The notes under the pieces were generated by a model. That model made no database searches, was not told the DNA's origin, and was given only the letters and a program-made list of their open reading frames with translations. A program made the translations under genes and the position numbers. 15,118 bases of DNA from a virus (Duplodnaviria > Heunggongvirae > Uroviricota > Caudoviricetes), in the IMG/VR virus record IMGVR_UViG_2740892439_000020, positions 1-15,118 of that record; one strand, written 5' to 3'. Of this stretch, positions 1-15,118 are shown one piece after another (position 1 is the stretch's first letter; every line of letters starts with the position of its first letter).

Positions 1-192
1 TCAGGAGCATTTCTGATTAACGCCACCGTTAAGAATCCACCCTTCAACAGCTTCACGAAGGTATGATTTGGGGTGGGTTCTGACTGGCTTCGGAAATCCG
101 TGGCGTTTGGTATAGTTCCAGATTGTCTGACGTGATGAAACACCGAGCTTGTTCATCACTTCTTTCTCAGGAATCAGGCTGGTATCGGTCAT
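1..192 (-). CDS. xis: excisionase-like small DNA-binding protein (Xis/AlpA-type HTH)
   Basis: 63-aa ORF; ATG at 190-192 with GGAGA 6 nt upstream; basic HTH-like sequence; sits at the distal end of the leftward early operon where lambdoid phages carry xis; its stop codon is the first triplet of the window, so int would lie outside. Confidence 0.55.
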   Translation of the reverse strand: MTDTSLIPEKEVMNKLGVSSRQTIWNYTKRHGFPKPVRTHPKSYLREAVEGWILNGGVNQKCS

Positions 193-206
193 CTTAATTC
201 TCCAGG

Positions 207-231
207 CAAAAATAAACCGCCATATAGCGGC
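207..231 (-). terminator. hairpin + T-tract element (minus-strand RNA GCCGC-UAUAUG-GCGGU then UUAUUUUUG) just upstream of the xis RBS
   Basis: 4-5 bp GC stem with 6-nt loop followed by T-run on minus strand; member of a repeated element family (see findings). Confidence 0.3.
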
Positions 232-271
232 TCTATCAGATATGAACAGGCCTCATCGAGTGTGAGGCGGG

Positions 272-616
272 TTAGTCCTTGCGTAGTTCGCTGATTCTTC
301 TGTAAGTCTCTGGTGCTTTGTTCCCGTACGTCTTCATTTCAGACTTCAACAGAGCAACGAGTGAATCCCATTCGTTGAGGATTCCTTTGAATGCCGGAAC
401 GCGCTTTGCAACCTTGTCGAATGAATCTCTGATTTCTGGAATCTGCTCAACAAGTGCAACGCATCGCCGGAAGTCTGCTGCGTCATGTGGAGCGCCGAAG
501 CTATGACCATAGATATTCTTTTTCAGGCCACATGCGATTGAGGCAAGAGTTGCGCTACTGATGCCAACATCGCCAGTCGATTGCCATTTCAAAACCTTCA
601 TAGCCAAATCTGACAT
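272..616 (-). CDS. hypothetical phage protein (114 aa)
   Basis: ORF in track 272..643; start moved to ATG 614-616 (MSDLAMKV...) because it has GGAGA 6 nt upstream, whereas the first 9 codons of the longer ORF are a translation of the terminator-like hairpin. Confidence 0.5.
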   Translation of the reverse strand: MSDLAMKVLKWQSTGDVGISSATLASIACGLKKNIYGHSFGAPHDAADFRRCVALVEQIPEIRDSFDKVAKRVPAFKGILNEWDSLVALLKSEMKTYGNKAPETYRRISELRKD

Positions 617-627
617 TTCTTGTCTCC

Positions 628-651
628 AATAAAAAACCGCCATCAGGCGGC
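628..651 (-). terminator. hairpin + T-tract element (minus-strand RNA GCCGCC-UGAU-GGCGG then UUUUUUAUU)
   Basis: perfect 5-bp GC stem CCGCC/GGCGG (637-650), 4-nt loop, U-run; lies at the junction of two small genes. Confidence 0.4.
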
Positions 652-2065: not shown

Positions 2066-2306
2066 TGGTTGCCCCCTGCTTTTCTGCCTTCAACACCATG
2101 TGCGAACCATCATCCAGCTCCCACGCGATCTCACCACCTTCAGCCATGACCAGTCGCCACACCAATTGAGCAGCCTCATTGGTAACATCACGACCTGGAT
2201 CATTGCCAACGCGCATACGCCCACCTTCAACATCGCGCATTTTTGCCAGCATGATAGTTTTTGATAGCGGTGAAAAACCAAGCTGTAGTCGTGCTGAATT
2301 ACTCAC
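2052..2306 (-). CDS. hypothetical small protein (84 aa)
   Basis: ORF 2052..2333 in track; start moved to GTG 2304-2306, which has a strong AAAGGAGG 6 nt upstream; overlaps the next gene start by 14 nt. Confidence 0.45.
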
Positions 2307-2469
2307 TGGTTGCCTCCTTTGCGCACATCGCATTCAGATATTTGTTTTTATTCACTGATGGAAAAGAATTTCTCTTAAGCAATTCCTCTCTCGATGGCAT
2401 TGGCTTTACGCGTTGGCGAATAATCATTTCTGCCGGAAGAATGCCGGGATTGTATGCAAGTCCTCTCAT
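2299..2469 (-). CDS. hypothetical small protein (56 aa)
   Basis: part of track ORF 2299..2502; ATG 2467-2469 (MRGLAYNP...) has GAGGAA 7 nt upstream; alternative start at 2484-2486 overlaps the upstream gene. Confidence 0.35.
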
Positions 2470-2479
2470 GGTAAATTCC

Positions 2480-2776
2480 TCAGTCATTACTGATAGCGCC
2501 ATAGCGTGAGCGGTAATTACGCAGGCGCGGGTCGATATATTCAGGGAAGTGGGTATATGTGGCTTTGCGGAATGGTCGGATTGATGTTTCGTTTATTCGG
2601 TCTTTTTCCTGTTTTTCTGCGAGTTGTATATCGCGTCGGTACTTCCGTTCTTCTTTTGTTTCTGGTGGCAGAGCAAGAAACGCGTCGAGATTATTCTTGA
2701 TATTTTCCAGCACCTCCGATATGGAATTGCCGGAACAGCGGCGCGGGTCGTCCGCACCATATAGAGGCGCTGGCAT
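2480..2776 (-). CDS. hypothetical phage protein (98 aa)
   Basis: ATG 2774-2776 with AGGAGA 6 nt upstream; starts 15 nt downstream of the exonuclease stop. Confidence 0.5.
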
Positions 2777-2792
2777 GGTTTTCTCCTGTTGA

Positions 2793-3341
2793 TTATTTAG
2801 CTAACTTTTTCCAGATCGCTGAAACGTATTTGGCTTGGTGAATGGCATCATCAAGCGCGTTGTGGCGAGTTCCTTTGAATGGCATATCTCGCTTAGGGTC
2901 GAATCCTATTACCTTCCCAAGTTCGACGATTGTTCTTACGTCGCGGTCATTCCACCACTGCCACGGAACTGGCTGCCCTGTCAGCGAATAACTGTTTCGG
3001 AGAATAACGCAGTCAAATGATGCTCCATTCCCCCAAACCTGAACGAATTTGTGGTTAGCGTTCTTTATGATGAATTCAGATAACCATGAAAGAGCCGTTG
3101 AAAGCTCCTGAGTGTTGCTGGTTAGCGATTTTCTGGCTTCTTCACTCTGTTCCAGCCACCATAAAATCGTTGAAGCGTCAGGACGCGCCCGATATCGCAT
3201 TGATGACTCAAGCGAGATATTTACCGAGAACTCTTCTCCTGTTTCTCCGGTATTCGGGTCAAAGAATACCGCCCCAATAGAAATAACTGGCGCATATGGC
3301 CCGTTGCCCATTGTTTCAAGGTCAACCATTAAGTGATTCAT
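2793..3341 (-). CDS. DEDDh-family (DnaQ-like) 3'-5' exonuclease
   Basis: 182 aa; Exo I motif MVDLET, Exo II WGNGASFDCVIL, Exo III HNALDDAIHQAKY; AAGGA RBS. Confidence 0.75.
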   Translation of the reverse strand: MNHLMVDLETMGNGPYAPVISIGAVFFDPNTGETGEEFSVNISLESSMRYRARPDASTILWWLEQSEEARKSLTSNTQELSTALSWLSEFIIKNANHKFVQVWGNGASFDCVILRNSYSLTGQPVPWQWWNDRDVRTIVELGKVIGFDPKRDMPFKGTRHNALDDAIHQAKYVSAIWKKLAK

Positions 3342-3349
3342 GTAAGTCC

Positions 3350-3856
3350 TTAAATTGCGTGAATAGCGTGACGAGGGAAGGGGAGAGTTACTGGTGCAAA
3401 GGGTATATCGTCGTCAAAATCCATCGGTGGTTCGTTGTGTTGTGCTGGTGATGATTGCTGCTGTGGCTTCTGTGATTGCCTGCTGGCTGCTTGTTGTTTG
3501 CTGTCGCCAATTCCGCCAAGCATTTGCATCACGCCATTAATTCCGACATGAACCTCGGTTGTGTAACGGTCTTGCCCTGACTGGTCTTTCCACTTTCTGG
3601 TTCTCAGCATTCCCTCGAAATAAATCTGATCACCTTTTTTCACATACTGCCCCACGACCTCAGCCAGTTTCCCGGATACAGCAACACGATGCCATTCAGT
3701 CAATTCCTTTTGCTCGCCAGTATTTTTATCTCGCCATTGTTCTGACGTGGCTATTGTCAGGTTAGCGAACGCTGTACCTGATGGTGAGTATCGAACTTCC
3801 GGGTCTTGTCCTACCCGACCAAGGATAATCACCTTATTTACGCCTCTGCTTGCCAT
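3350..3856 (-). CDS. ssb: single-stranded DNA-binding protein (SSB)
   Basis: 168 aa; N-terminal OB-fold region nearly colinear with E. coli SSB ([33 protein letters not shown]), Gly/Gln-rich linker, acidic C-terminal tail DFDDDIPF. Confidence 0.9.
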
Positions 3857-4564
3857 TTATGCCGCCTGTTTTAGTTCGTTAACTCTGATGTTCATTACCT
3901 GAACGCATTTAGCCTGCGCCTCCTCATTGCCAGCCATTAATTGCCAGTCACGCTGATAACGCTCGATGAGTTTTTTCTTGTCAGTTTCTGTTGACGCATA
4001 ATCGCTGAAGTCTTTCAGGATTTGTTCGCAGTCAACCGATGGAGATTTCTGGTTGGTATTTTCTGGTGATGGTTTGTTATCTGATGCTGGTATTGCCCAT
4101 CCCGGCAGCGATGGAGGGAGCCAGTAAAATCCTGTTCCATCCTTCAGTTTTGCCCTGTGCCACCCCTGCTTTTTATCGAGAGATGTTTGTGCGAAACCTT
4201 CCTCAAGGTTATACAGATACCGACCGATTCCCCACTGAACGGCAGCGCGCTTCATTGCACCGGAACGACCACCTTTGACGGCTTCTACCTGCGTGTTTTC
4301 AGCAGCATCCCATTTGGTTACCCATTCGGAATCAATCTTTATTGATATGCCGCATTCAACGCCTCCGTTGTTGGGAATATCGCGGTATTCATTGCGCCAT
4401 CCTGCTTTTCCGCAAACATCGTCCAGGCGTTTCATGATTGCCCGGTTCGTGACATAAGCCAGCACCATAGCCCACACTTTGCCATCGCGTGTTTTACCGC
4501 TTTGCTGTATTCGCCATTCGATATCTTCAGGGCCGAATGGCTCATCGAATTTATTCAAATCCAT
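3857..4564 (-). CDS. single-strand annealing protein (Rad52/Erf-like recombinase)
   Basis: 235 aa; directly abuts ssb (TAA then ATG); N-terminal annealase-like region with RAAVQWGIGRYLYNL motif; GAGGTGA RBS; sub-family assignment uncertain. Confidence 0.65.
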   Translation of the reverse strand: MDLNKFDEPFGPEDIEWRIQQSGKTRDGKVWAMVLAYVTNRAIMKRLDDVCGKAGWRNEYRDIPNNGGVECGISIKIDSEWVTKWDAAENTQVEAVKGGRSGAMKRAAVQWGIGRYLYNLEEGFAQTSLDKKQGWHRAKLKDGTGFYWLPPSLPGWAIPASDNKPSPENTNQKSPSVDCEQILKDFSDYASTETDKKKLIERYQRDWQLMAGNEEAQAKCVQVMNIRVNELKQAA

Positions 4565-4651
4565 AATTCACCTCAGAATGGACATGGCCCAAGGAAATAA
4601 CGCTGATTTAATACTTCAGTCTTTGCCGCATTTAAAAATACGCGAACACCT

Positions 4652-4822
4652 TCACGATCTCCCTTCTGGCGATACATTAACGCCTGCTGCGTGTACATGC
4701 GTCTCTGTAACTTGCTCTCCTTCACTGTGGTTGCGAGTGACATGAATATCTCCTTCGTTACCGATTAATTCTTTCATCTGACGAATGAATTCTTCGTCTG
4801 ACCAGTTATCTGTAAAACTCAT
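4652..4822 (-). CDS. hypothetical small acidic protein in the kil position (56 aa)
   Basis: ATG 4820-4822 overlaps the cIII-like stop as ATGA; part of track ORF 4652..4852. Confidence 0.4.
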   Translation of the reverse strand: MSFTDNWSDEEFIRQMKELIGNEGDIHVTRNHSEGEQVTETHVHAAGVNVSPEGRS

Positions 4823-4989
4823 GGACGGCCTTGTTGTTTCAAAATATCCCAAAGCTTTTCGAGCAAACTTTTCATTCTTGGTTGTTTAAAGTCTGCTCCG
4901 GTTAAAATGTTTTTTCGTGAATGCTGTACCGATAAAATCGGGTTGAAAGGGCGAACCGATGCCGCCCCTGCAATAGCGAACTGTTGCAT
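4819..4989 (-). CDS. cIII: CIII-like protein (FtsH/HflB inhibitor family), 56 aa
   Basis: ATG 4987-4989 with AAGGAG 7 nt upstream; N-terminal MQQFAIAG and C-terminal SLLEKLWDILKQQGRP resemble lambda CIII (MQYAIAG...ESLLER...RLIDILNQPGVP); the track ORF extends further 5' without an RBS. Confidence 0.55.
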   Translation of the reverse strand: MQQFAIAGAASVRPFNPILSVQHSRKNILTGADFKQPRMKSLLEKLWDILKQQGRP

Positions 4990-5051
4990 AGGATGCTCCT
5001 TCTGTTTGATTACATAACGAAAACGCCTCGAGTGAAGCGTTATTGGTATGC

Positions 5052-5079
5052 ATATAAAAAATCCCTCACACTGGAGGGC
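5052..5079 (-). terminator. putative rho-independent terminator (tL-type) upstream of cIII
   Basis: minus-strand stem CCCUC/GAGGG with 6-nt loop followed by AUUUUUUAUAU. Confidence 0.45.
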
Positions 5080-5141
5080 AAAGAAGATTTCCAATAATCA
5101 GAACAAGTCGGCTCCTGTTTAGTTACGAGCGACATTGCTCC

Positions 5142-5169
5142 GTGTATTCACTCGTTGGAATGAATACAC
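5142..5169. repeat. perfect 9-bp inverted repeat GTGTATTCA-N10-TGAATACAC
   Basis: read directly from sequence; intergenic between the membrane protein gene and cIII; no U-tract on the minus (transcribed) strand. Confidence 0.6.
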
Positions 5170-5196
5170 AGTGCAGTGTTTATTCTGTTGTTTATG

Positions 5197-5224
5197 CCAA
5201 AAATAAAGGACGATTATGCGGCCT
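5197..5224 (-). terminator. weak hairpin + UUUAUUUUUG element just after the membrane protein gene stop
   Basis: imperfect stem on minus strand followed by the same T-tail decamer seen at 207-216 and 5719-5728. Confidence 0.25.
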
Positions 5225-5228
5225 GAAA

Positions 5229-5678
5229 TTACTTAACCAATGATGCTGCATATTCGATAAGATAAAGTTTTGGGGCCAGCCAAATTTTTAACCAAGTCAT
5301 ATTGGTTACTACACCAATAATAAAAATCCCCCACAGAGTCAAAACTCCAACCAATGGCATGATAAGAAGGTTAATATCTCCTTTGCTATCCCAAACCATT
5401 GTCGGCCTGTATTTGGGATTTCCCCTCTCCCATGAGTATCCTTCATCACCGATTTTACCTGTCTCAACTCTTTGGCACTGCTTCTTCATAAACCAGAAAA
5501 CCAGTGGGATTGTTAGAATGGCTATTAATGTTTTAATCAGACTGTCAACCATATTCCATAGCAGCAACTGATGAACAACATCAGGAATCTGTGCTTGGCT
5601 AAATGAAACAGCAGCATCTATTCCATTGCTGGCTTTTTGCAGTAGTTCTACGAGAATCTTGTTTGCTTGTTCTTCCAT
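5229..5678 (-). CDS. predicted inner-membrane protein with two transmembrane helices (149 aa); possible superinfection-exclusion-type protein
   Basis: hydrophobic segments LIKTLIAILTIPLVFWFM and LLIMPLVGVLTLWGIFIIGVV; ATG 5676-5678 with AAGGTGA upstream; sits between N and cIII; function is inference only. Confidence 0.5.
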   Translation of the reverse strand: MEEQANKILVELLQKASNGIDAAVSFSQAQIPDVVHQLLLWNMVDSLIKTLIAILTIPLVFWFMKKQCQRVETGKIGDEGYSWERGNPKYRPTMVWDSKGDINLLIMPLVGVLTLWGIFIIGVVTNMTWLKIWLAPKLYLIEYAASLVK

Positions 5679-5718
5679 ATATCACCTTGATTGTAATAAG
5701 CATGAAATTATTTACGGA

Positions 5719-5746
5719 CAAAAATAAAGGCCACCATCAGGCAGCC
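5719..5746 (-). terminator. hairpin + T-tract element (tL1-type) between N region and membrane protein gene
   Basis: minus-strand 7-bp stem GGCUGCC/GGUGGCC (two G-U), loop UGAU, then CUUUAUUUUUG. Confidence 0.4.
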
Positions 5747-5817
5747 TTGTAGTTCTGTTTACCAAGTTCTCTGGCAATCATTGTCGTCGTTCGTATTGTC
5801 CACACCATTGATTTTTA

Positions 5818-5904
5818 TCAATAGTCGTAGTCATACGGATAGTCCTGGTATTGTTCCATCACATCCTGAGGATGCTCTTCGAACTCATCAAATTCTTCTT
5901 CCAT
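5818..5904 (-). CDS. 28-aa highly acidic mini-protein (MEEEFDEFEEHPQDVMEQYQDYPYDYDY)
   Basis: not in ORF track; ATG 5902-5904 with GAGGTGA 3-5 nt upstream, immediately after the N stop codon. Confidence 0.3.
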   Translation of the reverse strand: MEEEFDEFEEHPQDVMEQYQDYPYDYDY

Positions 5905-5912
5905 ATCTCACC

Positions 5913-6212
5913 TCAAATAAGTGGTTTACTGCCTAATTTCATTTTCTGGCGACCAACACAAGTCACACCCATTTCACTGCGTGGCTTGCGGTAGTAAATA
6001 CGATTCTGTTTACGCTCGATTTCTTCTGCCTTCTTGCAGCGAAGGCTTCCGAGTGATGCTGCTTTGTCTGCTCTGACGCAACCAGAGAGCTTTAGCGCAA
6101 TTTTTCGCGCCAGTGCTTCATTACTGCGTCGCTCGGCAATAAGTTCTGCTCTGCGAGCTTTGTAGCGGCTTTTTGCCGTACCTTTGGATTCTTTCCAGAC
6201 AATGGTTACCAT
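5913..6212 (-). CDS. N: antitermination protein N (phi21-type arginine-rich motif)
   Basis: ATG 6210-6212 with AAAGGAG 6 nt upstream (track ORF starts at 6242 without an RBS); N-terminal ARM GTAKSRYKARRAELIAERR as I recall for phage 21 N; first gene downstream of pL/nutL. Confidence 0.7.
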   Translation of the reverse strand: MVTIVWKESKGTAKSRYKARRAELIAERRSNEALARKIALKLSGCVRADKAASLGSLRCKKAEEIERKQNRIYYRKPRSEMGVTCVGRQKMKLGSKPLI

Positions 6213-6322
6213 GATGGTCTCCTTTAAGTGGCTTTGGCGCATGACGCGTCGAGGTGCTTATCTTCTCGATCGCTGTCTTGCAGCTGCAATTCGCGCCATC
6301 CCCAAAACCACTCAAGTTCTGG

Positions 6323-6363
6323 TCTCAACGGTTAGGTTGAGAGTCCGTCGATGTTAAAGAGCC
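6323..6363 (-). promoter_or_regulatory. nutL: nutL site: boxA (GCTCTTTAACA) and boxB hairpin (UCUCAAC-CUAACC-GUUGAGA)
   Basis: boxA consensus-like 11-mer at 6352-6362 on minus strand, then a perfect 7-bp stem hairpin at 6323-6342, between pL and N. Confidence 0.65.
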
Positions 6364-6404
6364 TGCCAATCTGTTCCGTTTGGCTTCCAGCGTCCTGCTG
6401 ATGG

Positions 6405-6464
6405 CTTAAATTTAAGACTTCTTAATTTATTGGTCAAGTGCATTTTTGAAGAAAACTTAATTTT
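6405..6464 (-). promoter_or_regulatory. pL promoter with OL operators
   Basis: minus-strand -35 TTGACC (6432-6437), 17-nt spacer, -10 TAAATT (6409-6414); P22-type operator-like 18-mers with TTAAG/CTTAA half-sites at 6410-6427 and 6445-6462; 12-bp perfect palindrome CTTAAATTTAAG at 6405-6416. Confidence 0.5.
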
Positions 6465-6500
6465 ATGGGCGTGAATTTAGTTTGTCTTTGATTTTTAACG

Positions 6501-6528
6501 GGAAATAAAAAAGGGGCGAAAGCCCTTA
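6501..6528 (-). terminator. putative terminator immediately after the repressor gene
   Basis: minus-strand GGGC-UUUC-GCCC hairpin followed by CUUUUUUAUUU, starting at the repressor stop codon. Confidence 0.4.
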
Positions 6529-7176
6529 AGGAAGGTTTGCTAGCTTGGCATCAACGACAACGCCAATGATTTTACAGTTCCCATTGATTTCAATCATTGG
6601 GTATTGTGGATTGAGTGGTTTCAGGAATTTTCTACCGGCATCAATAACTAACTTTTTGAATGTCGCCTCGTTTTCTCCTTCAAGTTTGGCGACTACCAGC
6701 TTTCCATTACGTGGTTCGACTTCTGGGTCGACGAGAATAATCATCCCCTCAGGAATACTCAGTCCTGCCGGGGCAGTCATTGAATCGCCTTTAACGTCGA
6801 GCCAAAAAGAGTCTTCAGAACAATCTACCGTTGTGTCGTACCAGTTATCTATTGCACGCCTATGATATGGCTCTACAGCTTCCATCCAACATCCTGCGCT
6901 TACCCAACTAATTAGAGGATATGAACCTCTTGGATCATGCCTGCTGTGATAGGCAATGTTTGAAAGACTATCCTCTCCTTTCAACAGGTAATCAGGGGAG
7001 CACTGCAAAGCCTTGGCTAAGGCCAATAGGTTTTCGCCATTGGGCTCAGTTTCAGATCGCTCCCATTGGGAAATAGCAACATTAGACACGCCAACCATCT
7101 TGCCAAGGGCAGCCTGCCTAATCTTGAGTTCTTTTCTGCGAGCGCGAATACGCTCACCCATCAGTTGTGTATTCAT
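6526..7176 (-). CDS. c2: prophage repressor, C2/CI type (N-terminal HTH, C-terminal LexA-like S24 self-cleaving domain), P22 C2-like
   Basis: 216 aa; N-terminal domain (MNTQLMGERIRARR..QAALGKMVGVSNVAISQWERSE) matches my recollection of the P22 C2 DNA-binding domain; C-terminal Ser-Lys peptidase region (GDSMTAPAG...KLVVAKL...TFKKL); divergent from cro across an operator region. Confidence 0.85.
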   Translation of the reverse strand: MNTQLMGERIRARRKELKIRQAALGKMVGVSNVAISQWERSETEPNGENLLALAKALQCSPDYLLKGEDSLSNIAYHSRHDPRGSYPLISWVSAGCWMEAVEPYHRRAIDNWYDTTVDCSEDSFWLDVKGDSMTAPAGLSIPEGMIILVDPEVEPRNGKLVVAKLEGENEATFKKLVIDAGRKFLKPLNPQYPMIEINGNCKIIGVVVDAKLANLP

Positions 7177-7245
7177 AGTTAAGACATCTTAAATAAACTT
7201 GACTTAAGATTCCTTTGGTGGATAATTTAAGTGTTCTTTAATTTC
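7177..7245. promoter_or_regulatory. OR operator region with pR (and divergent pRM)
   Basis: three 18-bp P22-type operator-like sites of form ANTNAAG-N4-CTTNANT at 7177-7194, 7202-7219, 7225-7242; pR -35 TTGACT 7199-7204 and -10 GATAAT 7221-7226 on plus strand. Confidence 0.6.
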
Positions 7246-7256
7246 GGAGCGAGTCT

Positions 7257-7442
7257 ATGTACAAAAAAGATGTTATTGACCACTTCGGAACCCAGCGTGC
7301 TGTTGCTAAAGCACTAGGCATTAGCGATGCAGCAGTCTCTCAGTGGAAAGAAGTTATCCCAGAGAAAGACGCCTATCGATTGGAAATCGTTACAGCTGGC
7401 GCCCTGAAGTATCAAGAAAGTGCTTACCGCCAAGCGGCATAA
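7257..7442 (+). CDS. cro: Cro repressor (P22 Cro-like)
   Basis: 61 aa; GGAG RBS; HTH QRAVAKALGISDAAVSQW; sequence matches my recollection of P22 Cro; divergent from repressor. Confidence 0.85.
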   Translation: MYKKDVIDHFGTQRAVAKALGISDAAVSQWKEVIPEKDAYRLEIVTAGALKYQESAYRQAA

Positions 7443-7449
7443 GCAAATT

Positions 7450-7489
7450 GCTCTTTAACAGTTCTGGCCTTTCACCTCTAACCGGGTGA
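7450..7489 (+). promoter_or_regulatory. nutR: nutR site: boxA (GCTCTTTAACA) and boxB hairpin with CUAACCG loop
   Basis: boxA 7450-7460 identical to the nutL boxA; boxB stem UCACC/GGUGA at 7472-7489 shares the CUAACCG loop sequence with nutL boxB. Confidence 0.6.
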
Positions 7490-7498
7490 GCAAACATC

Positions 7499-7525
7499 AG
7501 CGGCAAATCCATTGGGTGTGCCGCT
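7499..7525 (+). other. 7-bp inverted repeat AGCGGCA-N13-TGCCGCT (candidate tR1-region structure, no U-tract)
   Basis: read from sequence between nutR and the cII-like gene; lambda tR1 is rho-dependent, which is consistent with absence of a T-run. Confidence 0.3.
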
Positions 7526-7557
7526 ATAACTCAATATCAATATAGGAAAATTAACAA

Positions 7558-7854
7558 ATGGCACAAGCAAGCTACAGCAAGCCAACACAGCGAGAAATTG
7601 ATCGCGCTGAAACTGATTTACTCATCAACCTGTCAACGCTTACCCAGCGCGGTCTGGCAAAGATGATTGGCTGTCATGAATCGAAGATAAGCAGAACGGA
7701 CTGGAGGTTTATTGCTTCGGTCTTGTGTGCTTTCGGAATGGCATCAGACATCAGTCCGATTAGCAGGGCTTTTAAGTATGCGCTTGATGAAATCACAAAG
7801 AAAAAATCCCCGGCCGCCACCGAGGATTTTAAGCAAATTGATATGCAATTCTGA
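7558..7854 (+). CDS. cII: CII-family transcriptional activator
   Basis: 98 aa; HTH region and C-terminal KKKSPAATEDFKQIDMQF resemble lambda CII (NKKRPAATERSEQIQMEF); follows cro and nutR. Confidence 0.75.
   Translation: MAQASYSKPTQREIDRAETDLLINLSTLTQRGLAKMIGCHESKISRTDWRFIASVLCAFGMASDISPISRAFKYALDEITKKKSPAATEDFKQIDMQF
7567..7580 (-). promoter_or_regulatory. candidate CII-binding site of pRE (TTGC-N6-TTGC direct repeat)
   Basis: minus strand reads TTGCTGTAGCTTGC inside the 5' end of the cII-like gene, the position and form of the lambda pRE activator site. Confidence 0.45.
7797..7826 (-). terminator. oop-type antisense terminator within the 3' end of the cII-like gene
   Basis: minus-strand hairpin (7807-7826) followed by AUUUUUUCUUUG; same location as the lambda oop RNA terminator. 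Confidence 0.45.
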
Positions 7855-7886
7855 GGGAATTACTGGATCAATCCACAGGAGTAATT

Positions 7887-8048
7887 ATGACAAAACGTCG
7901 TAAGAAATACCAGGAAAAAGAAGAGATTCGACACCCTGATTCACCTGAGGGATTAGTGGTAGCCGCAGCAAATAACAGGGCGTTCGCAGAGCGCCTTGTT
8001 GGTGTTTACAGACTAGCCAAAGCAGGAGTGAAACATGGGCGTCGTTAA
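7887..8048 (+). CDS. small basic protein (53 aa, [53 protein letters not shown])
   Basis: not in ORF track; ATG 7887-7889 with AGGAG 6 nt upstream; ends 14 nt inside the O-like gene. Confidence 0.45.
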   Translation: MTKRRKKYQEKEEIRHPDSPEGLVVAAANNRAFAERLVGVYRLAKAGVKHGRR

Positions 8049-8796
8049 GTTAGCTGATTACAGGCCTCAACTGGAGGTCGTGGAGCATCGCGTGGCAGAT
8101 ACCGAAGATGGTTTCATGCGCGTTGCTAACGAGATTACCGACAGTCTGCTGATGGCTGATTTAACCGTCCGGCAGTTGAAGGTGATGCTCGCTATCATGC
8201 GCAAGACATACGGATTCAATAAGCCGATGGATCGACTCACAAACACGCAGATAGCAGCCATGACAGGTATTCATCACACTCATGTTTGCGCTGCCAAGCG
8301 CCAGCTTATCGAGCGTAAATTCCTCATTGCTGATGGCGTGAAAATCGGAGTGAACAAGGTGGTTTCTCAGTGGATTAGCCAGGACAGCTTAACATTAGCT
8401 AAAACAGCTAATAAAACATTAGCCGAGTCGGCTAATGGGTATAAGCCAAGTCAGCTAAACACAAAAGACAATATACAAAAGACAATAAATACAAATACCC
8501 CCTTACCCCCTAACGGGGGCGGCGATTGGCAGGTTAAACCTGAACGTCGCAAGGCAGAACGAATCGACTACGAATCCTTCCTGAACGCCTACAACGCCGA
8601 AGTCGGTGACAGACTTCCACACGCTGTTGCGGTCAACGAGAAACGCAAACGCCGCCTGAAGAAAATCATCCCGCAACTGAAAACGCCAAACGTGGACGGT
8701 TTCAGAGCGTATGTCAGGGCGTTTGTGCATCAGCCAAGCCGTTTTACTTCGGAGACAACGACACTGGCTGGACGGCAGATTTTGATTACCTGCTGA
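8035..8796 (+). CDS. O: replication initiation protein, lambda O-like N-terminal domain (possibly 3'-frameshifted, see findings)
   Basis: 253 aa as read; AGGAG RBS; N-terminal region [37 protein letters not shown] resembles lambda O (DLTKRQFKVLLAILRKTYGWNKPMDRITDSQ); iterons inside the gene. Confidence 0.8.
8394..8500. repeat. candidate replication origin: ATTAGC/GCTAAT iteron-like palindromes followed by an AT-rich tract
   Basis: palindromes ATTAGCT-AAAAC-AGCTAAT (8394-8412) and ATTAGCCGA-G-TCGGCTAAT (8418-8436), a degenerate third copy near 8441-8458, then AT-rich 8459-8500; inside the O-like coding region as for ori-lambda. Confidence 0.5.
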
Positions 8797-8851
8797 GGGA
8801 AGATTCGTTAACGGGAGTACGGGAAGGGAAGTTTGCAGACAGGGGGATAGC

Positions 8852-10228
8852 ATGAGACAGGATATCGAAGCGAGCGTTATCGGTGGCCTGCTGATTGGTG
8901 GATTAACACCAACTGCCAGTGACGTTCTGGCAACGCTTGAGCCGGAAGCGTTTTCAATTCCGCTCTACCGGAAAGCCTTCGAGGTTATCCGCAAGCAGGC
9001 GAGAAACAGAAACCTAATCGACGCGCTGATGGTTGCCGAGGCGTGCGGAGAGGAGCATTTCACGTCAATCCTGATGACCAGCAAAAACTGCCCGAGCGCC
9101 GCAAACCTGAAGGGATATGCCGGAATGGTCGCGGATAACTATCACCGCCGTCTGGTGCTGGAAATCATGGATGAAATGCGTGAACCAATTCAGAGCGGAA
9201 CCATCGATACATCGAGTCAGGCGATGGACGAGCTTGTAAAGCGTCTTTCAGCCATCAGAAAGCCCCGTGACGAGGTTAAACCTGTACGGTTAGGGGAAAT
9301 CATCACTGACTACACTGACACGCTTGACAGGCGTCTGAGGAACGGAGAAGAGTCAGATACCCTGAAGACCGGAATCGAAGAACTTGATGTCATCACCGGA
9401 GGGATGAACGCGGAAGACCTGGTGATAATCGCTGCCCGTCCTGGCATGGGGAAAACCGAACTGGCGCTGAAGATTGCCGAAGGCGTTGCAAGCCGCGTTA
9501 TTCCTGGTTCTGACGTCCGGCGCGGAGTATTGATTTTCTCAATGGAAATGAGCGCATTGCAGATTGCAGAGCGAAGCATTGCCAACGCCGGGAGGATGTC
9601 GGTTAGCGTACTGCGAAATCCTGCATCGATGGATGACGAAGGCTGGGCGCGTGTTGCTAACGGCATGAGTCAGCTTGCAGATTTGGATGTATGGGTAGTC
9701 GATGCCTCGCGGTTATCGGTCGAAGAAATACGCTCAATCGCAGAACGACACAAACAGGAAAATCCAAACCTGTCACTCATCATGGCGGATTATCTTGGCC
9801 TGATTGAGAAGCCGAAAGCAGACCGCAACGACCTCGCAATTGCTCACATCTCCGGAAGCCTGAAGGCGATGGCGAAAGACCTGAAAACGCCTGTTATCTC
9901 CCTAAGTCAGCTTTCGCGCGATGTTGAGAAGCGACCAAACAAACGCCCGACAAACGCAGATTTGCGTGATTCAGGAAGCATTGAGCAGGACGCAGACTCA
10001 ATCATCATGCTCTATCGGGAAGCGGTATATGACGAGAACAGTAGCGCCGCGCCATTTGCTGAAATCATCGTGACGAAAAACCGTTTTGGCTCGCTTGGTA
10101 CGGTTTACCAGCGGTTCTGTAACGGACATTTTGTTGCATGTGACCAGGATGAAGCCAGACAGATTTGCACAGCATCAAATGCACCCGCTGCACGTGGCAG
10201 ACGATATGCACAAGGGGCTGACGTATGA
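8852..10228 (+). CDS. DnaB-family replicative DNA helicase (P22 gene 12-like, replaces lambda P)
   Basis: 458 aa; DnaB N-terminal domain; Walker [13 protein letters not shown]; Walker B and RecA-fold motifs ([18 protein letters not shown]); follows the O-like gene. Confidence 0.9.
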
Positions 10229-10253
10229 CCATCTACATCACTGAGCTAATAAC

Positions 10254-10286
10254 AGGCCTGCTGGTAATCGCAGGCCTTTTTATTTG
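10254..10286 (+). terminator. rho-independent terminator (tR2-like) after the helicase gene
   Basis: perfect 8-bp stem AGGCCTGC/GCAGGCCT with 8-nt loop followed by TTTTTATTT. Confidence 0.65.
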
Positions 10287-10300
10287 GGGGAGGGTAAATC

Positions 10301-10507
10301 GTGGCTGAGTTAATTTTCTCTGCATTGAGGATTCTTGGTGCTATGTGGATGGTGGCGACGTTCATTGTGGTTGCCAGCAGTTTTGTCCGGTTGGTAGGCG
10401 AAGGTAAAGACCTGGTGGGTGTGCTTTTCGGTAGCATTTTCCTGTGGGTGATTATCGGTGTTGCGCCTGTCGCTGTAGCAAAAATGGCGTGGCGTTTTGT
10501 GAGTTGA
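10301..10507 (+). CDS. small membrane protein with two predicted TM helices (68 aa)
   Basis: GTG start 10301-10303 with GGGGGAGGG 6 nt upstream; hydrophobic segments MWMVATFIVVASSFV and VLFGSIFLWVIIGVAPVAVA. Confidence 0.45.
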   Translation: MAELIFSALRILGAMWMVATFIVVASSFVRLVGEGKDLVGVLFGSIFLWVIIGVAPVAVAKMAWRFVS

Positions 10508-10524
10508 ACTGATGGTAAGTACCG

Positions 10525-10845
10525 ATGGACGAATCAAGAAAGCAGTTTGAAGAAAGCTGGTTGCGACGTGGGGGCGAATCTTCAGACCTTATCCGTTACC
10601 CTGAAAATCACCATGAAATTGGCAGCGGTAATATTGGTGGTCAATACGTGATGGTCGATGTTCAAGGCCACTGGCAAACGTGGCAGGCATCGCGATCAGC
10701 TATTGAAATAACCGCGCCAAAGTTTATCGACAGCAGAGAAGCATTAGCCAAAGGGTTTACTGTTGATTATTCCAATGGCTTCGGTGATGCAATGGATGCT
10801 TATGAGGAAAACATCCGCGCTGCTGGAGTCAAATTGAAGGAGTAA
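10525..10845 (+). CDS. hypothetical phage protein (106 aa)
   Basis: ORF with coding-like composition between helicase and ninB; weak RBS. Confidence 0.5.
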   Translation: MDESRKQFEESWLRRGGESSDLIRYPENHHEIGSGNIGGQYVMVDVQGHWQTWQASRSAIEITAPKFIDSREALAKGFTVDYSNGFGDAMDAYEENIRAAGVKLKE

Positions 10846-10847
10846 CG

Positions 10848-11258
10848 ATGAAGCAAACAATCTTCCTCCGAAGTAAGCAACAACAGCAAGCCGCAATAAA
10901 TGCCATCCTCGCAACACCACTCGATAAAGACAAGCCAGTCACCATCCGCATTACTGACTACAAGCGCAATCTTGACCAGAACGCAAAATTTCACGCGATG
11001 CTGGCGGATATCGCTCGTCAGGTTCAATGGTGCGGCAAATGGTTAAAACCGGAACAGTGGAAGGTTTTGTTGATTAGCGGTCATGCAGTGGCAACAAAAC
11101 AGGAAGCTGATGTTTTGCGCGGCCTTGAAGGCGAATTCGTCAACATTCGCGAAAGCAGCGCGCAGATGAGCGTGAAGCGTATGGCAAGTCTGATCGAGTA
11201 CACAACAGCCTGGGCTATTGGTCAGGGTGTCAGATTTACCGACAGGAGGTACGAATGA
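10848..11258 (+). CDS. ninB: NinB (Orf-family recombination mediator)
   Basis: 136 aa; AAGGAG RBS; similarity to lambda NinB/Orf ([25 protein letters not shown] vs lambda LDQNRKLWACLGDVSRQVEWHGRWL). Confidence 0.8.
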
Positions 11259-11431
11259 GACGACAGCGACGAAGTATCACCGACATAATCTGCGAAAACT
11301 GCAAATACCTTCCAACGAAACGCTCCAGAAATAAACGCAAGCCAATCCCAAAAGAATCTGACGTAAAAACCTTCAATTACACAGCTCACCTGTGGGATAT
11401 CCGGTGGCTAAGATATCGTGCGAGGAAATGA
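11255..11431 (+). CDS. ninE: NinE
   Basis: 58-aa ORF not in track; ATGA overlap with ninB stop; AGGAGG RBS; [30 protein letters not shown] matches my recollection of lambda NinE. Confidence 0.75.
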
Positions 11432-11787
11432 CAATGGATTATTCACAGTTAAGTGATTTTGAAATTAACAGAATGGTAGGAGACATAATTTTTAAAGGCC
11501 TTTGGGCAAGTAAACCGGAAACATCAGGGAATAACACCAACAAATGGTATTACGGAAATGCTGATACAACTTTTGAGCCATTAAACCCTTTACCTGACTA
11601 CTGCAATGATCCTAGCGCCTCATGGCCGATTATTGAGAAATACAGGATTAGCATTATCAATCTCGATGAAGACGAGTGGGGTGCACGTGGTGTGGCCGAC
11701 TGTAAATCTAAGCGAGCTATACATGAAAATTCCCTCCGCGCCGCCATGATTGTCTTTCTCATGATGCAGGACGCCAATAATGCTTAG
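11428..11787 (+). CDS. NinX-like hypothetical protein (about 118 aa)
   Basis: ATG 11428 overlaps the ninE stop as ATGA (alternative ATG 11434 with GAGGAAA RBS); track ORF starts further upstream at GTG 11392 inside ninE; position between ninE and ninF as for P22 ninX. Confidence 0.55.
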
Positions 11788-11956
11788 CCCATCCCAATCC
11801 CTCCAATACCAGAAAGAAAGCGTCGAGCGGGCTTTAACGTGCGCTAACTGCGGTCAGAAGCTGCATGTGCTGGAAGTTCACGTGTGTGAGCACTGCTGCG
11901 CAGAACTGATGAGCGATCCGAATAGCTCAATGTACGAGGAAGAAGACGATGGCTAA
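11780..11956 (+). CDS. ninF: NinF
   Basis: 58-aa ORF not in track; [40 protein letters not shown] (Cys-rich) matches my recollection of lambda NinF; overlaps both neighbours. Confidence 0.75.
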
Positions 11957-12560
11957 ACCAGCGCGAAGACGATGTAAAAACGATGAATGTCGGGAATGGT
12001 TTCACCCTGCATTCGCTAATCAGTGGTGGTGCTCTCCAGAGTGTGGAACCAAGATAGCACTCGAACGACGAAGTAAAGAACACGAAAAAGCGGAAAAAGC
12101 AGCAGAGAAGAAACGACGACGAGAGGAGCAGAAACAGAAAGATAAACTTAAGATTCGAAAACTCGCCTTAAAGCCCCGCAGTTACTGGATTAAACAAGCC
12201 CAACAAGCCGTAAACGCCTTCATCAGAGAAAGAGACCGCGACTTACCATGTATCTCGTGCGGAACGCTCACGTCTGCTCAGTGGGATGCCGGACATTACC
12301 GGACAACTGCTGCGGCACCTCAACTCCGATTTGATGAACGCAATATTCACAAGCAATGCGTGGTGTGCAACCAGCACAAAAGCGGGAATCTCGTTCCGTA
12401 TCGCGTCGAACTGATTAGCCGCATCGGGCAGGAAGCAGTAGACGAAATCGAATCAAACCATAACCGCCATCGCTGGACTGTCGAAGAGTGCAGGGCCATC
12501 AAGGCGGAGTATCAGCAGAAACTCAAAGACCTGCGAAATAGCAGAAGTGAGGCCGCATGA
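11949..12560 (+). CDS. ninG: NinG (Rap-family recombination-associated endonuclease)
   Basis: 203 aa; Cys-rich N-terminus and lysine-rich region as in lambda NinG; gene order. Confidence 0.85.
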
Positions 12561-12763
12561 CGTTCTCAGTAAAAACCATTCCAGACATGCTCGTTGAAGC
12601 ATACGGAAACCAGACAGAAGTAGCACGCAGACTGAAATGTAGTCGCGGCACGGTAAGAAAATACGTTGATGATAAAGACGGGAAAATGCACGCCATCGTC
12701 AACGACGTTCTCATGGTTCATCGCGGATGGAGTGAAAGAGATGCGCTATTACGAAAAAATTGA
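12557..12763 (+). CDS. ninH: NinH
   Basis: 68 aa; ATGA overlap with ninG stop; matches lambda NinH in length and HTH-like sequence. Confidence 0.8.
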
Positions 12764-13406
12764 TGGCAGCAAATACCGAAATATTTGGGTAGTTGGCGAC
12801 CTGCACGGATGCTACACGAACCTGATGAACAAACTGGATACGATTGGATTCGACAACAAAAAAGACCTGCTTATCTCGGTGGGCGATTTGGTTGATCGCG
12901 GTACAGAGAACGTCGAATGTCTGGAATTAATCACATTCCCCTGGTTCAGAGCTGTACGTGGAAACCATGAGCAAATGATGATTGATGGCTTATCAGAGCG
13001 TGGAAACGTTAATCACTGGCTGCTTAATGGCGGTGGCTGGTTCTTTAATATCGATTACGACAAAGAAATTCTGGCTAAAGCTCTTGCCCATAAAGCAGAA
13101 GAACTTCCGTTAATCATCGAACTGGTGAGCAAAGGTAAAAAATATGTCATTTGCCACGCCGATTATCCTTGTGATGAATACGAGTTTGGAAAGCCAGTTG
13201 ATCATCAGCAGGTAATCTGGAACCGCGAACGAATCGGCAACTCACAAGACGGGATCGTGAAAGAAATCAAAGGCGCGGACACGTTCATCTTTGGTCATAC
13301 GCCAGCAGTGAAACCACTCAAATTTGCCAACCAGATGTATATCGATACCGGCGCAGTGTTCTGCGGAAACCTCACATTGATTCAGGTACAGGGAGAAGGC
13401 GCATGA
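12741..13406 (+). CDS. ninI: NinI serine/threonine protein phosphatase (lambda PPase family)
   Basis: start moved to ATG 12741 (GGAGTGAAAGAG RBS) from track start 12666; metallophosphatase motifs GDLHG, GDLVDRG, GNHE, GHT. Confidence 0.9.
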
Positions 13407-14026
13407 GACTCGAAAGCGTAGCTAAATTTCATTCGCCAAAAAGCCCGATGATGAGCGACTCACCACGGGCTACGGCTTCTGACTCTCTTTCCGGTACTGA
13501 TGTGATGGCTGCTATGGGGATGGCGCAATCACAAGCCGGATTCGGAATGGCTGCATTCTGCGGTAAGCATGAACTCAGCCAGAACGACAAACAAAAGGCT
13601 ATCAACTATCTGATGCAATTTGCACACAAGGTATCGGGGAAATACCGTGGTGTGGCAAAGCTTGAAGGAAATACTAAGGCAAAGGTACTGCAAGTGCTCG
13701 CAACATTCGCTTATGCAGATTATTGCCGTAGTGCCGCGACGCCGGGGGCAAGATGCAGAGATTGCCACGGTACAGGCCGTGCGGTTGATATAGCCAAAAC
13801 GGAGCAGTGGGGGAGAGTTGTTGAGAAAGAGTGCGGAAGATGCAAAGGTGTCGGCTATTCAAGAATGCCAGCAAGCGCCGCATATCGCGCTGTAACGATG
13901 CTAATCCCAAACCTTACTCAACCCACCTGGTCACGCACTGTTAAGCCGCTGTATGACGCTCTGGTGGTGCAATGCCACAAAGAAGAGTCAATCGCAGACA
14001 ACATTTTGAATGCGGTCACACGCTAG
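13403..14026 (+). CDS. Q: late-gene antiterminator Q (lambda Q type)
   Basis: 207 aa; ATGA overlap with ninI stop; zinc-binding CRDCHGTG...CGRCKG motifs; sequence matches my recollection of lambda Q; followed by a lambda-type pR'. Confidence 0.9.
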
Positions 14027-14068
14027 CAGCATGATTTCCACGGATGGCAACATATTAACGGCATGATA

Positions 14069-14110
14069 TTGACTTTTTGAATAAAGTTGGGTAAATTTGA
14101 CTCAACGATG
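14069..14110 (+). promoter_or_regulatory. late promoter pR' with overlapping qut (Q-utilisation) site
   Basis: -35 TTGACT 14069-14074, 17-nt spacer, -10 TAAATT 14092-14097; region nearly identical to lambda pR' as recalled. Confidence 0.75.
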
Positions 14111-14132
14111 GATAAATGCACTCGTTAAATAA

Positions 14133-14167
14133 AGCCTGAGTTAATAGCTCGGGGCTTTTTGCGTTTT
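14133..14167 (+). terminator. rho-independent terminator about 30-60 nt downstream of the pR' start (tR'-like, would give a short 6S-like RNA)
   Basis: 8-bp stem with one bulge (AGCCUGAG/CUCGGGGCU), 7-nt loop, then UUUUUGCGUUUU. Confidence 0.5.
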
Positions 14168-14303
14168 AATCACGACCTTTCTGAAAGCACATCAAACCAA
14201 ATACCAGACAGACAAAAATAATCACCTTATCCGCTGTGGCTACGGTGCGGTGTGCTTTGCATAAAAGAAAACCAGCGCAATGGCTGGCTTCGTGAAAGCG
14301 GGT

Positions 14304-14342
14304 GGCAAGAGGTTGCGCTAACAACCTCCTGCCGTTTTGCCC
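14304..14342 (+). other. strong stem-loop (12-bp stem, one mismatch) followed by GTTTTG in the late leader upstream of S
   Basis: GGCAAGAGGTTG-CGCTAA-CAACCTCCTGCC read from sequence; possible attenuator/terminator or RNA processing structure. Confidence 0.5.
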
Positions 14343-14385
14343 TTATTCCTAATTAAATAGAGCAAATCCCTTATTGGGCTAAGAC

Positions 14386-14709
14386 ATGAAGATGCCAGAA
14401 AAACATGACCTGTTAGCCGCCATTCTCGCGGCAAAGGAACAAGGCATCGGGGCAATCCTTGCGTTTGCAATGGCGTACCTTCGCGGCAGATATAATGGCG
14501 GTGCGTTTACAAAAACAGTAATCGACGCAACGATGTGCGCCATTATCGCCTGGTTCATTCGTGACCTTCTCGACTTCGCCGGACTAAGTAGCAATCTCGC
14601 TTATATAACGAGCGTGTTCATCGGCTACATCGGTACTGACTCGATTGGTTCGCTTATCAAACGCTTCGCTGCTAAAAAAGCCGGAATAGAAGATGGTGGA
14701 AATCAATAA
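14386..14709 (+). CDS. S: holin S (lambda S107/S105 dual-start class I holin)
   Basis: 107 aa; Met1-Lys2-Met3 dual-start motif; three TM segments; small CCC-TTATT-GGG hairpin (14368-14378) just upstream as for the lambda sdi structure. Confidence 0.9.
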
Positions 14710-15118
14710 TCAACGTAAGGCGTTCCTCGATATGCTGGCGTGGTCAGAGGGAACTGATAACGGACGGCAGAAAACCAGAAATCATGGTTATGACGTCATT
14801 GTTGGCGGAGAGCTATTCACTGATTACTCCGATCACCCTCGCAAACTTGTCACGCTAAACCCCAAACTCAAATCAACAGCCGCCGGACGCTACCAGCTTC
14901 TTTCCCGTTGGTGGGATGCCTACCGTAAGCAGCTTGGCCTGAAAGACTTCTCTCCGAAAAGCCAGGACGCTGTGGCACTGCAACAGATTAAAGAGCGTGG
15001 CGCTTTACCGATGATTGACCACGGTGATATTCGTCAGGCTATCGACCGTTGCAGCAATATCTGGCTTCACTGCCGGGAGCTGGTTATGGTCAGTTCGAGC
15101 ATAAGGCTGACAGCCTGA
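14693..15118 (+). CDS. R: endolysin R (lytic transglycosylase), C-terminus altered by an apparent 1-bp deletion frameshift
   Basis: overlaps S by 17 nt as in lambda; residues 1-123 match lambda R ([35 protein letters not shown]...); final 18 codons are out of frame relative to lambda R and end at the last triplet of the window. Confidence 0.85.

Follow-up and report, generated by a model that had tools for sequence, protein, structure and literature searches.

A frameshift in the lambda-type endolysin gene R of an Escherichia coli prophage, very probably a homopolymer sequencing error

Does the lysis gene R of a mosaic lambdoid/P22-like prophage carry a genuine truncating lesion, or did the frameshift that closes its reading frame arise when the DNA was sequenced? 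The question is raised by the far end of the window, by which we mean the whole stretch of 15,118 nucleotides analysed here (IMG/VR record IMGVR_UViG_2740892439_000020). The window contains the early and late-regulatory half of the prophage: a leftward recombination operon (a Rad52/Erf-like protein, SSB, an exonuclease, an anti-RecBCD protein and DUF2737), next a P22 C2-like repressor, Cro and CII, then O and a DnaB-like helicase, the nin genes with a NinI phosphatase, and finally Q, S and R. The features surrounding the frameshift are as follows.

13403..14026, plus strand: Q late antiterminator, 207 aa, intact; PHROG Q-like match, E = 6.6e-83
14368..14378, plus strand: hairpin just upstream of the dual-start codons of S, both arms one base short
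14386..14709, plus strand: S holin/antiholin, 107 aa, intact, overlapping the start of R; PHROG holin/anti-holin match, E = 2.3e-40
14693..15118, plus strand: R, lambda-type endolysin / lytic transglycosylase, 141 aa as recorded (124 native and 17 out-of-frame residues, then TGA)
15063..15064, plus strand: GG run, short by the one base whose loss shifts the R frame (counted below as the deletion at 15062); relatives have GGG

Up to codon 124 (Trp124, TGG at 15062-15064) the R ORF reads as lambda R, its last residues in the lambda frame being ...NIW; there follow 17 unrelated residues and a TGA (15116-15118) that is the final triplet of the window. An earlier note on this DNA had described the ORF in just these terms, adding that one extra G after 15064 would give the continuation of lambda R and that the window has TGGCTTC where lambda has a longer run. 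The ORF and its translation bear this out. When the other frame is followed from 15064, the product agrees exactly with the corresponding part of translated lambda R (NC_001416 45493-45969), and the lambda C-terminus given in the note is correct. An alignment of the R DNA of the window, lambda, an E. coli ST540 prophage and phage HZ41 contains a single gap, with TCT-GGCTTC in the window and TCTGGGCTTC in the others; in place of TGGCTTC, lambda and each relative inspected have TGGGCTTC. The loss of 'about 35' C-terminal residues put forward in the note comes to 34 by comparison with lambda R, which is 158 aa long and of which the window ORF keeps 124 native residues, and the recorded ORF stops 51 nt before the normal end. 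Stop codons coincide with both ends of the window, which indicates that the window was cut at gene calls; the frameshift accounts for its ending at a premature TGA.

Judged by its sequence, the R DNA belongs to the lambda R-type endolysin family (annotated in RefSeq as GH24 or GH104), although the ORF as recorded is a partial one. In the recorded protein the match to the PHROG endolysin profile runs from residue 3 to residue 124 and no further. With one G restored and the 51 nt downstream taken from the source contig, the product matches PDB 1AM7 over 1-157 with 98% identity and 3 differences (E = 2.7e-104); an NCBIfam scan returned no family match for either the recorded or the repaired R. 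The similarity to lambda-type R is not a matter of chance, because the DNA is 96.5-99.1% identical to R genes in the 70 records listed. The 24 residues around the N-terminal motif ...LAWSEGT... are the same in the translated window R as in lambda R, and they include the residue that we take to be the catalytic glutamate, Glu19 in lambda R.

The arrangement of the genes is likewise that of lambda (R structures PDB 1AM7 and 3D3D), with the order Q-S-R-Rz, the S/R overlap and the overlap of the R stop with the Rz start common to both. The window ORF differs from lambda R in leaving the frame after Trp124, in the substitutions G63A and R110H, and in a terminal ...IEA for ...IDV. The source contig runs past the window for 80 nt, which read ...ATTGCAAAATTCAAAGAAGCTGGCGGAACGGTCAGAGAGATTGAGGCATGAGCAGAGTAACC...; in the shifted frame the rest of R is undamaged (...DSLIAKFKEAGGTVREIEA*), and R passes into Rz, whose start is normal, via the usual ATGA overlap. 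Downstream of Q, the positions of holin, endolysin and spanin are accordingly occupied by S, R (start 14693, overlapping S) and Rz (start ATGAGCAGAGTAACC, just past the window).

Relatives of the window carry the longer run at this site. The extra base is present in 30/30 phage records and 40/40 E. coli records, these being the best 30 of 122 and the best 40 of 2780 matched. The closest lambdoid/P22-like E. coli prophages considered (mEp235, HK544 and those in ST540 and Ecol_AZ147) share 97-99% DNA identity with the window over the nin region, Q, S and R, yet differ from it in having a 158-aa R and longer G/C runs at each window site covered. An extra G stands at the R site in 104 of 106 covering loci, a set that is enriched for the wild type in that some 120 loci were retrieved by the GGG pattern; the unbiased measure of absence comes from other searches. 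The exact 27-mer with GG gave no match in IMG/VR and none in 185,579 species-representative genomes (the 28-mer with GGG, the wild-type pattern, gave at least 120), and the deletion was found in none of the 822 complete E. coli genome records, from a set of 5,426, that were matched by a 70-nt probe centred on the site (best identity 97.2%). No record contained the exact 141-aa R product or the exact 253-aa O product.

Besides the source, one carrier was found among JGI/ENA metagenome contigs: L128 (ENA OPYQ01004834), from human gut, in which GGG has also become GG. This contig is 1,024 bp long with 0.535x coverage (from its name), its R allele is a different one, 97% identical to the window R, and its Rz contains another homopolymer indel, CCC to CCCC. 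The occurrence of the same loss in L128 could mean that the G run of R is a natural mutational hot spot, prone to slippage. Given its low coverage and the additional indel in Rz, we judged L128 unreliable as evidence of a natural deletion allele, and its own loss of a G in R is probably an error.

Positions 2741-15118 of the window are 100% identical to contig JUDV01000037.1 (40,529 bp) of assembly GCA_001630855.1, E. coli RCE01, a contig that was traced by way of the exact NinI sequence, in which Ile104 is private, and of the frameshifted DUF2737 product. JUDV00000000 is the record of strain RCE01, obtained from a Crohn's disease patient (PMC5517970; BMC Genomics 2017, 18:544). The RCE01 libraries were sequenced by Ion Torrent PGM (318 chip, 200-bp kit) and assembled with MIRA 4.0, and the authors state that homopolymer errors led to artificial frameshifts and that their HomoHomo tool cuts artificial indels 'by the factor of about 2.5' only (PMC5517970). 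A reduction of only about 2.5 leads one to expect residual artificial frameshifts in the JUDV record.

The prophage adjoins sbcB, with a 392-aa tyrosine integrase (window 1-643, and 12450-13628 of L151, the source contig). Other mosaic lambdoid prophages occupy the sbcB site in other E. coli, for example strain 2016C04-116 and isolate AJ5. The source contig breaks off about 30 nt into Rz (L142 12379-12458, 80 nt past the window), as is typical of short-read assemblies when a genome has several lambdoid prophages that share a lysis cassette. Another contig must therefore carry the packaging and structural genes of this prophage.

When the whole window was compared by blastn with its close relatives, seven private 1-bp indels were found (2324, 6525, 8733, 14134, 14370, 14379 and 15062), all of them deletions and all within G/C runs. 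Those other than the R site are as follows.

2324, minus strand: CC to C (on the coding strand, GG to G), close to the 3' end of the DUF2737 gene; longer run in 2/4 comparators (the other two alignments begin here)
6523..6525, plus strand: CCCC to CCC, directly past the stop of the repressor gene (6526..7176, minus strand); longer in 3/3 loci
8733, plus strand: GG to G, inside replication gene O; longer in 13/13 loci
14135..14136 (deletion site 14134), plus strand: CCC to CC, Q-S intergenic region; CCC in 22-23 of 24 covering loci
14368-14370, plus strand: CCCC to CCC, upstream of S, 5' arm of the hairpin; longer in about 81 of 85 covering loci
14376-14378 (deletion site 14379), plus strand: GGGG to GGG, upstream of S, 3' arm of the hairpin; longer in about 81 of 85 loci

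The well-covered regions of the window contain no private single-base insertion, and no larger indel or IS element is among the private events. Gaps in divergent or mosaic stretches (near 627, 2673-2701, 3441-3550, 4617-4621, 11769 and 11980) were not counted. A 2-bp GG 'insertion' after 269, which separates the 123-aa ORF at 272..643 (minus strand) from a 114-aa version, was considered as a further error and rejected, the same protein being encoded in 16 independent contigs, as befits a natural allele.

Two of these deletions repeat in other genes what is seen in R. The ORF of gene O (8035..8796) tracks the reference O protein to residue 233, then goes off frame and falls 59 nt short of the normal stop at 8855; past 8733 the other frame reads AKPFYFGDN... 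as far as that stop, overlapping the helicase start at 8852. The frameshift in O is very probably the same artefact as that in R. In the DUF2737 gene (2299..2469, minus strand), the normal C-terminus ...NAMWRKGG(N/K)Q is replaced after the loss of one G from GG, and the frameshifted product occurs in one contig in the whole collection, JUDV01000037.1.

An eighth deletion lies in the chromosomal flank on the same contig, where GGG has become GG in yeeZ (CATCAGGGCATCC to CATCAGGCATCC; position 19983 of L151); the extra base is present in 12/12 of the closest complete E. coli genomes listed. This flank (integrase, sbcB, yeeD/E, plaP, yeeY, yeeZ) is 99.9% identical to the complete genome of isolate AJ5, with 7 mismatches in 7.7 kb and the one gap. 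Since yeeZ is a conserved host gene, such deletions extend beyond the prophage; their density is higher in the prophage (7 in 15.1 kb) than in the flank (1 in 7.7 kb), but not significantly so (Poisson estimate, P ~0.14). Of the eight deletions, R, O, DUF2737 and yeeZ carry one each, and the other four lie in intergenic DNA; written with the G strand up, seven of the eight show a G run followed by C. If deletions were placed at random, the probability that 8/8 would lie in G/C runs is ~1e-6, and, given placement in homopolymers, the probability that 8/8 would be in G/C is ~6e-4. A/T runs outnumber G/C runs in the window, yet G/C runs alone are affected, some of them only 2-3 bases long.

The balance between deletions and substitutions is also unusual. 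In wild-type E. coli, natural mutation yields roughly ten times as many substitutions as indels. The best-sampled 2.4 kb of the window (12750-15118, at least 15 comparators) contain 4 private deletions and 2 private substitutions, and 14341-15118, with at least 50 comparators, 3 deletions and 1 substitution. The nearest relatives, L139 and L141, from other assemblies that encode the same NinI protein, are 99.64% identical to the window over 11814-15118, with 8 mismatches and, as their only gaps, the four private 1-bp deletions of that stretch, and encode a 158-aa R.

The single-base homopolymer deletions of the window, in coding and non-coding DNA alike and with artificial frameshifts as their result, resemble the Ion Torrent PGM under-call errors of Bragg et al. 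2013 as these are cited in PMC5517970. Set against that error class, the window is peculiar in showing deletions only, in G/C runs only, and in part in runs of 2-3 bases. Reference-guided correction or the flow order may have shaped which errors remain. We know of no exclusive association of Ion Torrent errors with G/C. A miscall at methylation motifs, of the nanopore type, was rejected: none of the eight contexts is a Dcm (CCWGG) or Dam (GATC) site, and the platform is Ion Torrent.

How, then, should the frameshift in R be read? If the 1-bp deletion were genuine, this would be a cryptic, decaying prophage, defective in lysis and replication, with R, O and DUF2737 frameshifted and with a truncated R that, deprived of the last 34 residues of its fold, is predicted to be inactive. 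The deposited sequence does read so; decay by frameshift is established as common in prophages, a frameshift in O as well is what would be expected of a prophage no longer under selection, and the loss seen in L128 leaves room for slippage at this run in vivo. We consider such a lesion very unlikely, however, for deletions of this type have also struck the conserved chromosomal yeeZ and G/C runs at four intergenic sites, every one of the eight events removes a base from such a run, with no insertions, larger indels or IS elements alongside, and private indels exceed private substitutions, whereas in natural mutation spectra the reverse holds. The remainder of R, as well as Rz, S, Q and other genes, is intact, and the platform is known for exactly this artefact, its residual errors being admitted by the authors (PMC5517970). 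That the deletions are real as a set, the sbcB-site prophage of RCE01 having been hit by -1 slippage at G runs in R, O, DUF2737 and the hairpin upstream of S, seems to us very unlikely. A third reading, in which full-length R would be produced by programmed +1/-1 ribosomal frameshifting or by slippage of the transcribing polymerase within the G run, draws its sole support from the downstream frame, which is fully open and conserved. Two G bases do not make a slippery site, such recoding is needed by none of the thousands of R homologues (GGG and a single 158-aa ORF are found throughout), and deletions of the same kind are seen at unrelated sites, coding as well as non-coding, so that recoding is scarcely credible.

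By far the best account is that the truncation of R is an Ion Torrent homopolymer under-call, and we hold this to be highly probable, although the mis-call at the R site itself is reached by inference. On this platform a homopolymer gives one flow signal, and its length is estimated from the size of that signal. Reading a GGG run as GG would yield exactly the 1-bp deletion in R, and the under-call would have survived correction into the deposited RCE01 draft (JUDV01000037.1). The artefact is favoured because the platform has acknowledged residual frameshifts, because there are seven further private G/C-run deletions, and because the allele is absent from relatives of good quality. Both hallmarks of a flow-platform artefact are found here, namely a known error in homopolymer length and several private homopolymer indels, one of them in a conserved host gene. 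The earlier note had offered two explanations; that of a homopolymer sequencing error stands, on the strength of the Ion Torrent PGM draft, the seven other deletions and the missing allele, and these same observations leave the decaying or lysis-attenuated prophage unsupported.

The hairpin upstream of S calls for similar caution. In relatives it has the form CCCC-UUAUU-GGGG, and its predicted energy is -3.5 kcal/mol as recorded, vs -6.8 in AZ147 and -9.7 in lambda. The lambda equivalent is presumably the sdi structure, which sets the holin/antiholin ratio, and a real change here could alter the timing of lysis. The loss of one base from each arm more likely represents two further under-called 4-base runs.

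These results suggest that frameshifted phage lysis genes in drafts from flow-based platforms (Ion Torrent, 454) need read-level support before prophage decay or lysis attenuation is called. A general test can be framed against near-identical relatives, by asking whether private 1-bp indels cluster in homopolymers, whether they exceed private substitutions and whether they affect conserved host genes too. Should the lesion in R be true after all, it would add one more defective lambdoid prophage, a common thing of modest interest; should the deletions as a whole be real, they would point to a mutator lineage prone to G/C-run deletion, or to a domesticated, lysis-disabled prophage in Crohn's-disease-associated E. 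coli. Under the preferred reading, an under-called G run, the real phage DNA most likely encodes an intact 158-aa lambda-type lytic transglycosylase R, as its sequence predicts, followed by Rz/Rz1, and the Q-S-R-Rz lysis cassette of the phage is most likely intact. By its sequence R is a lytic transglycosylase gene of the usual lambda R type, set in a lambdoid lysis cassette of the usual kind, and its 'truncation' is very probably not biological.
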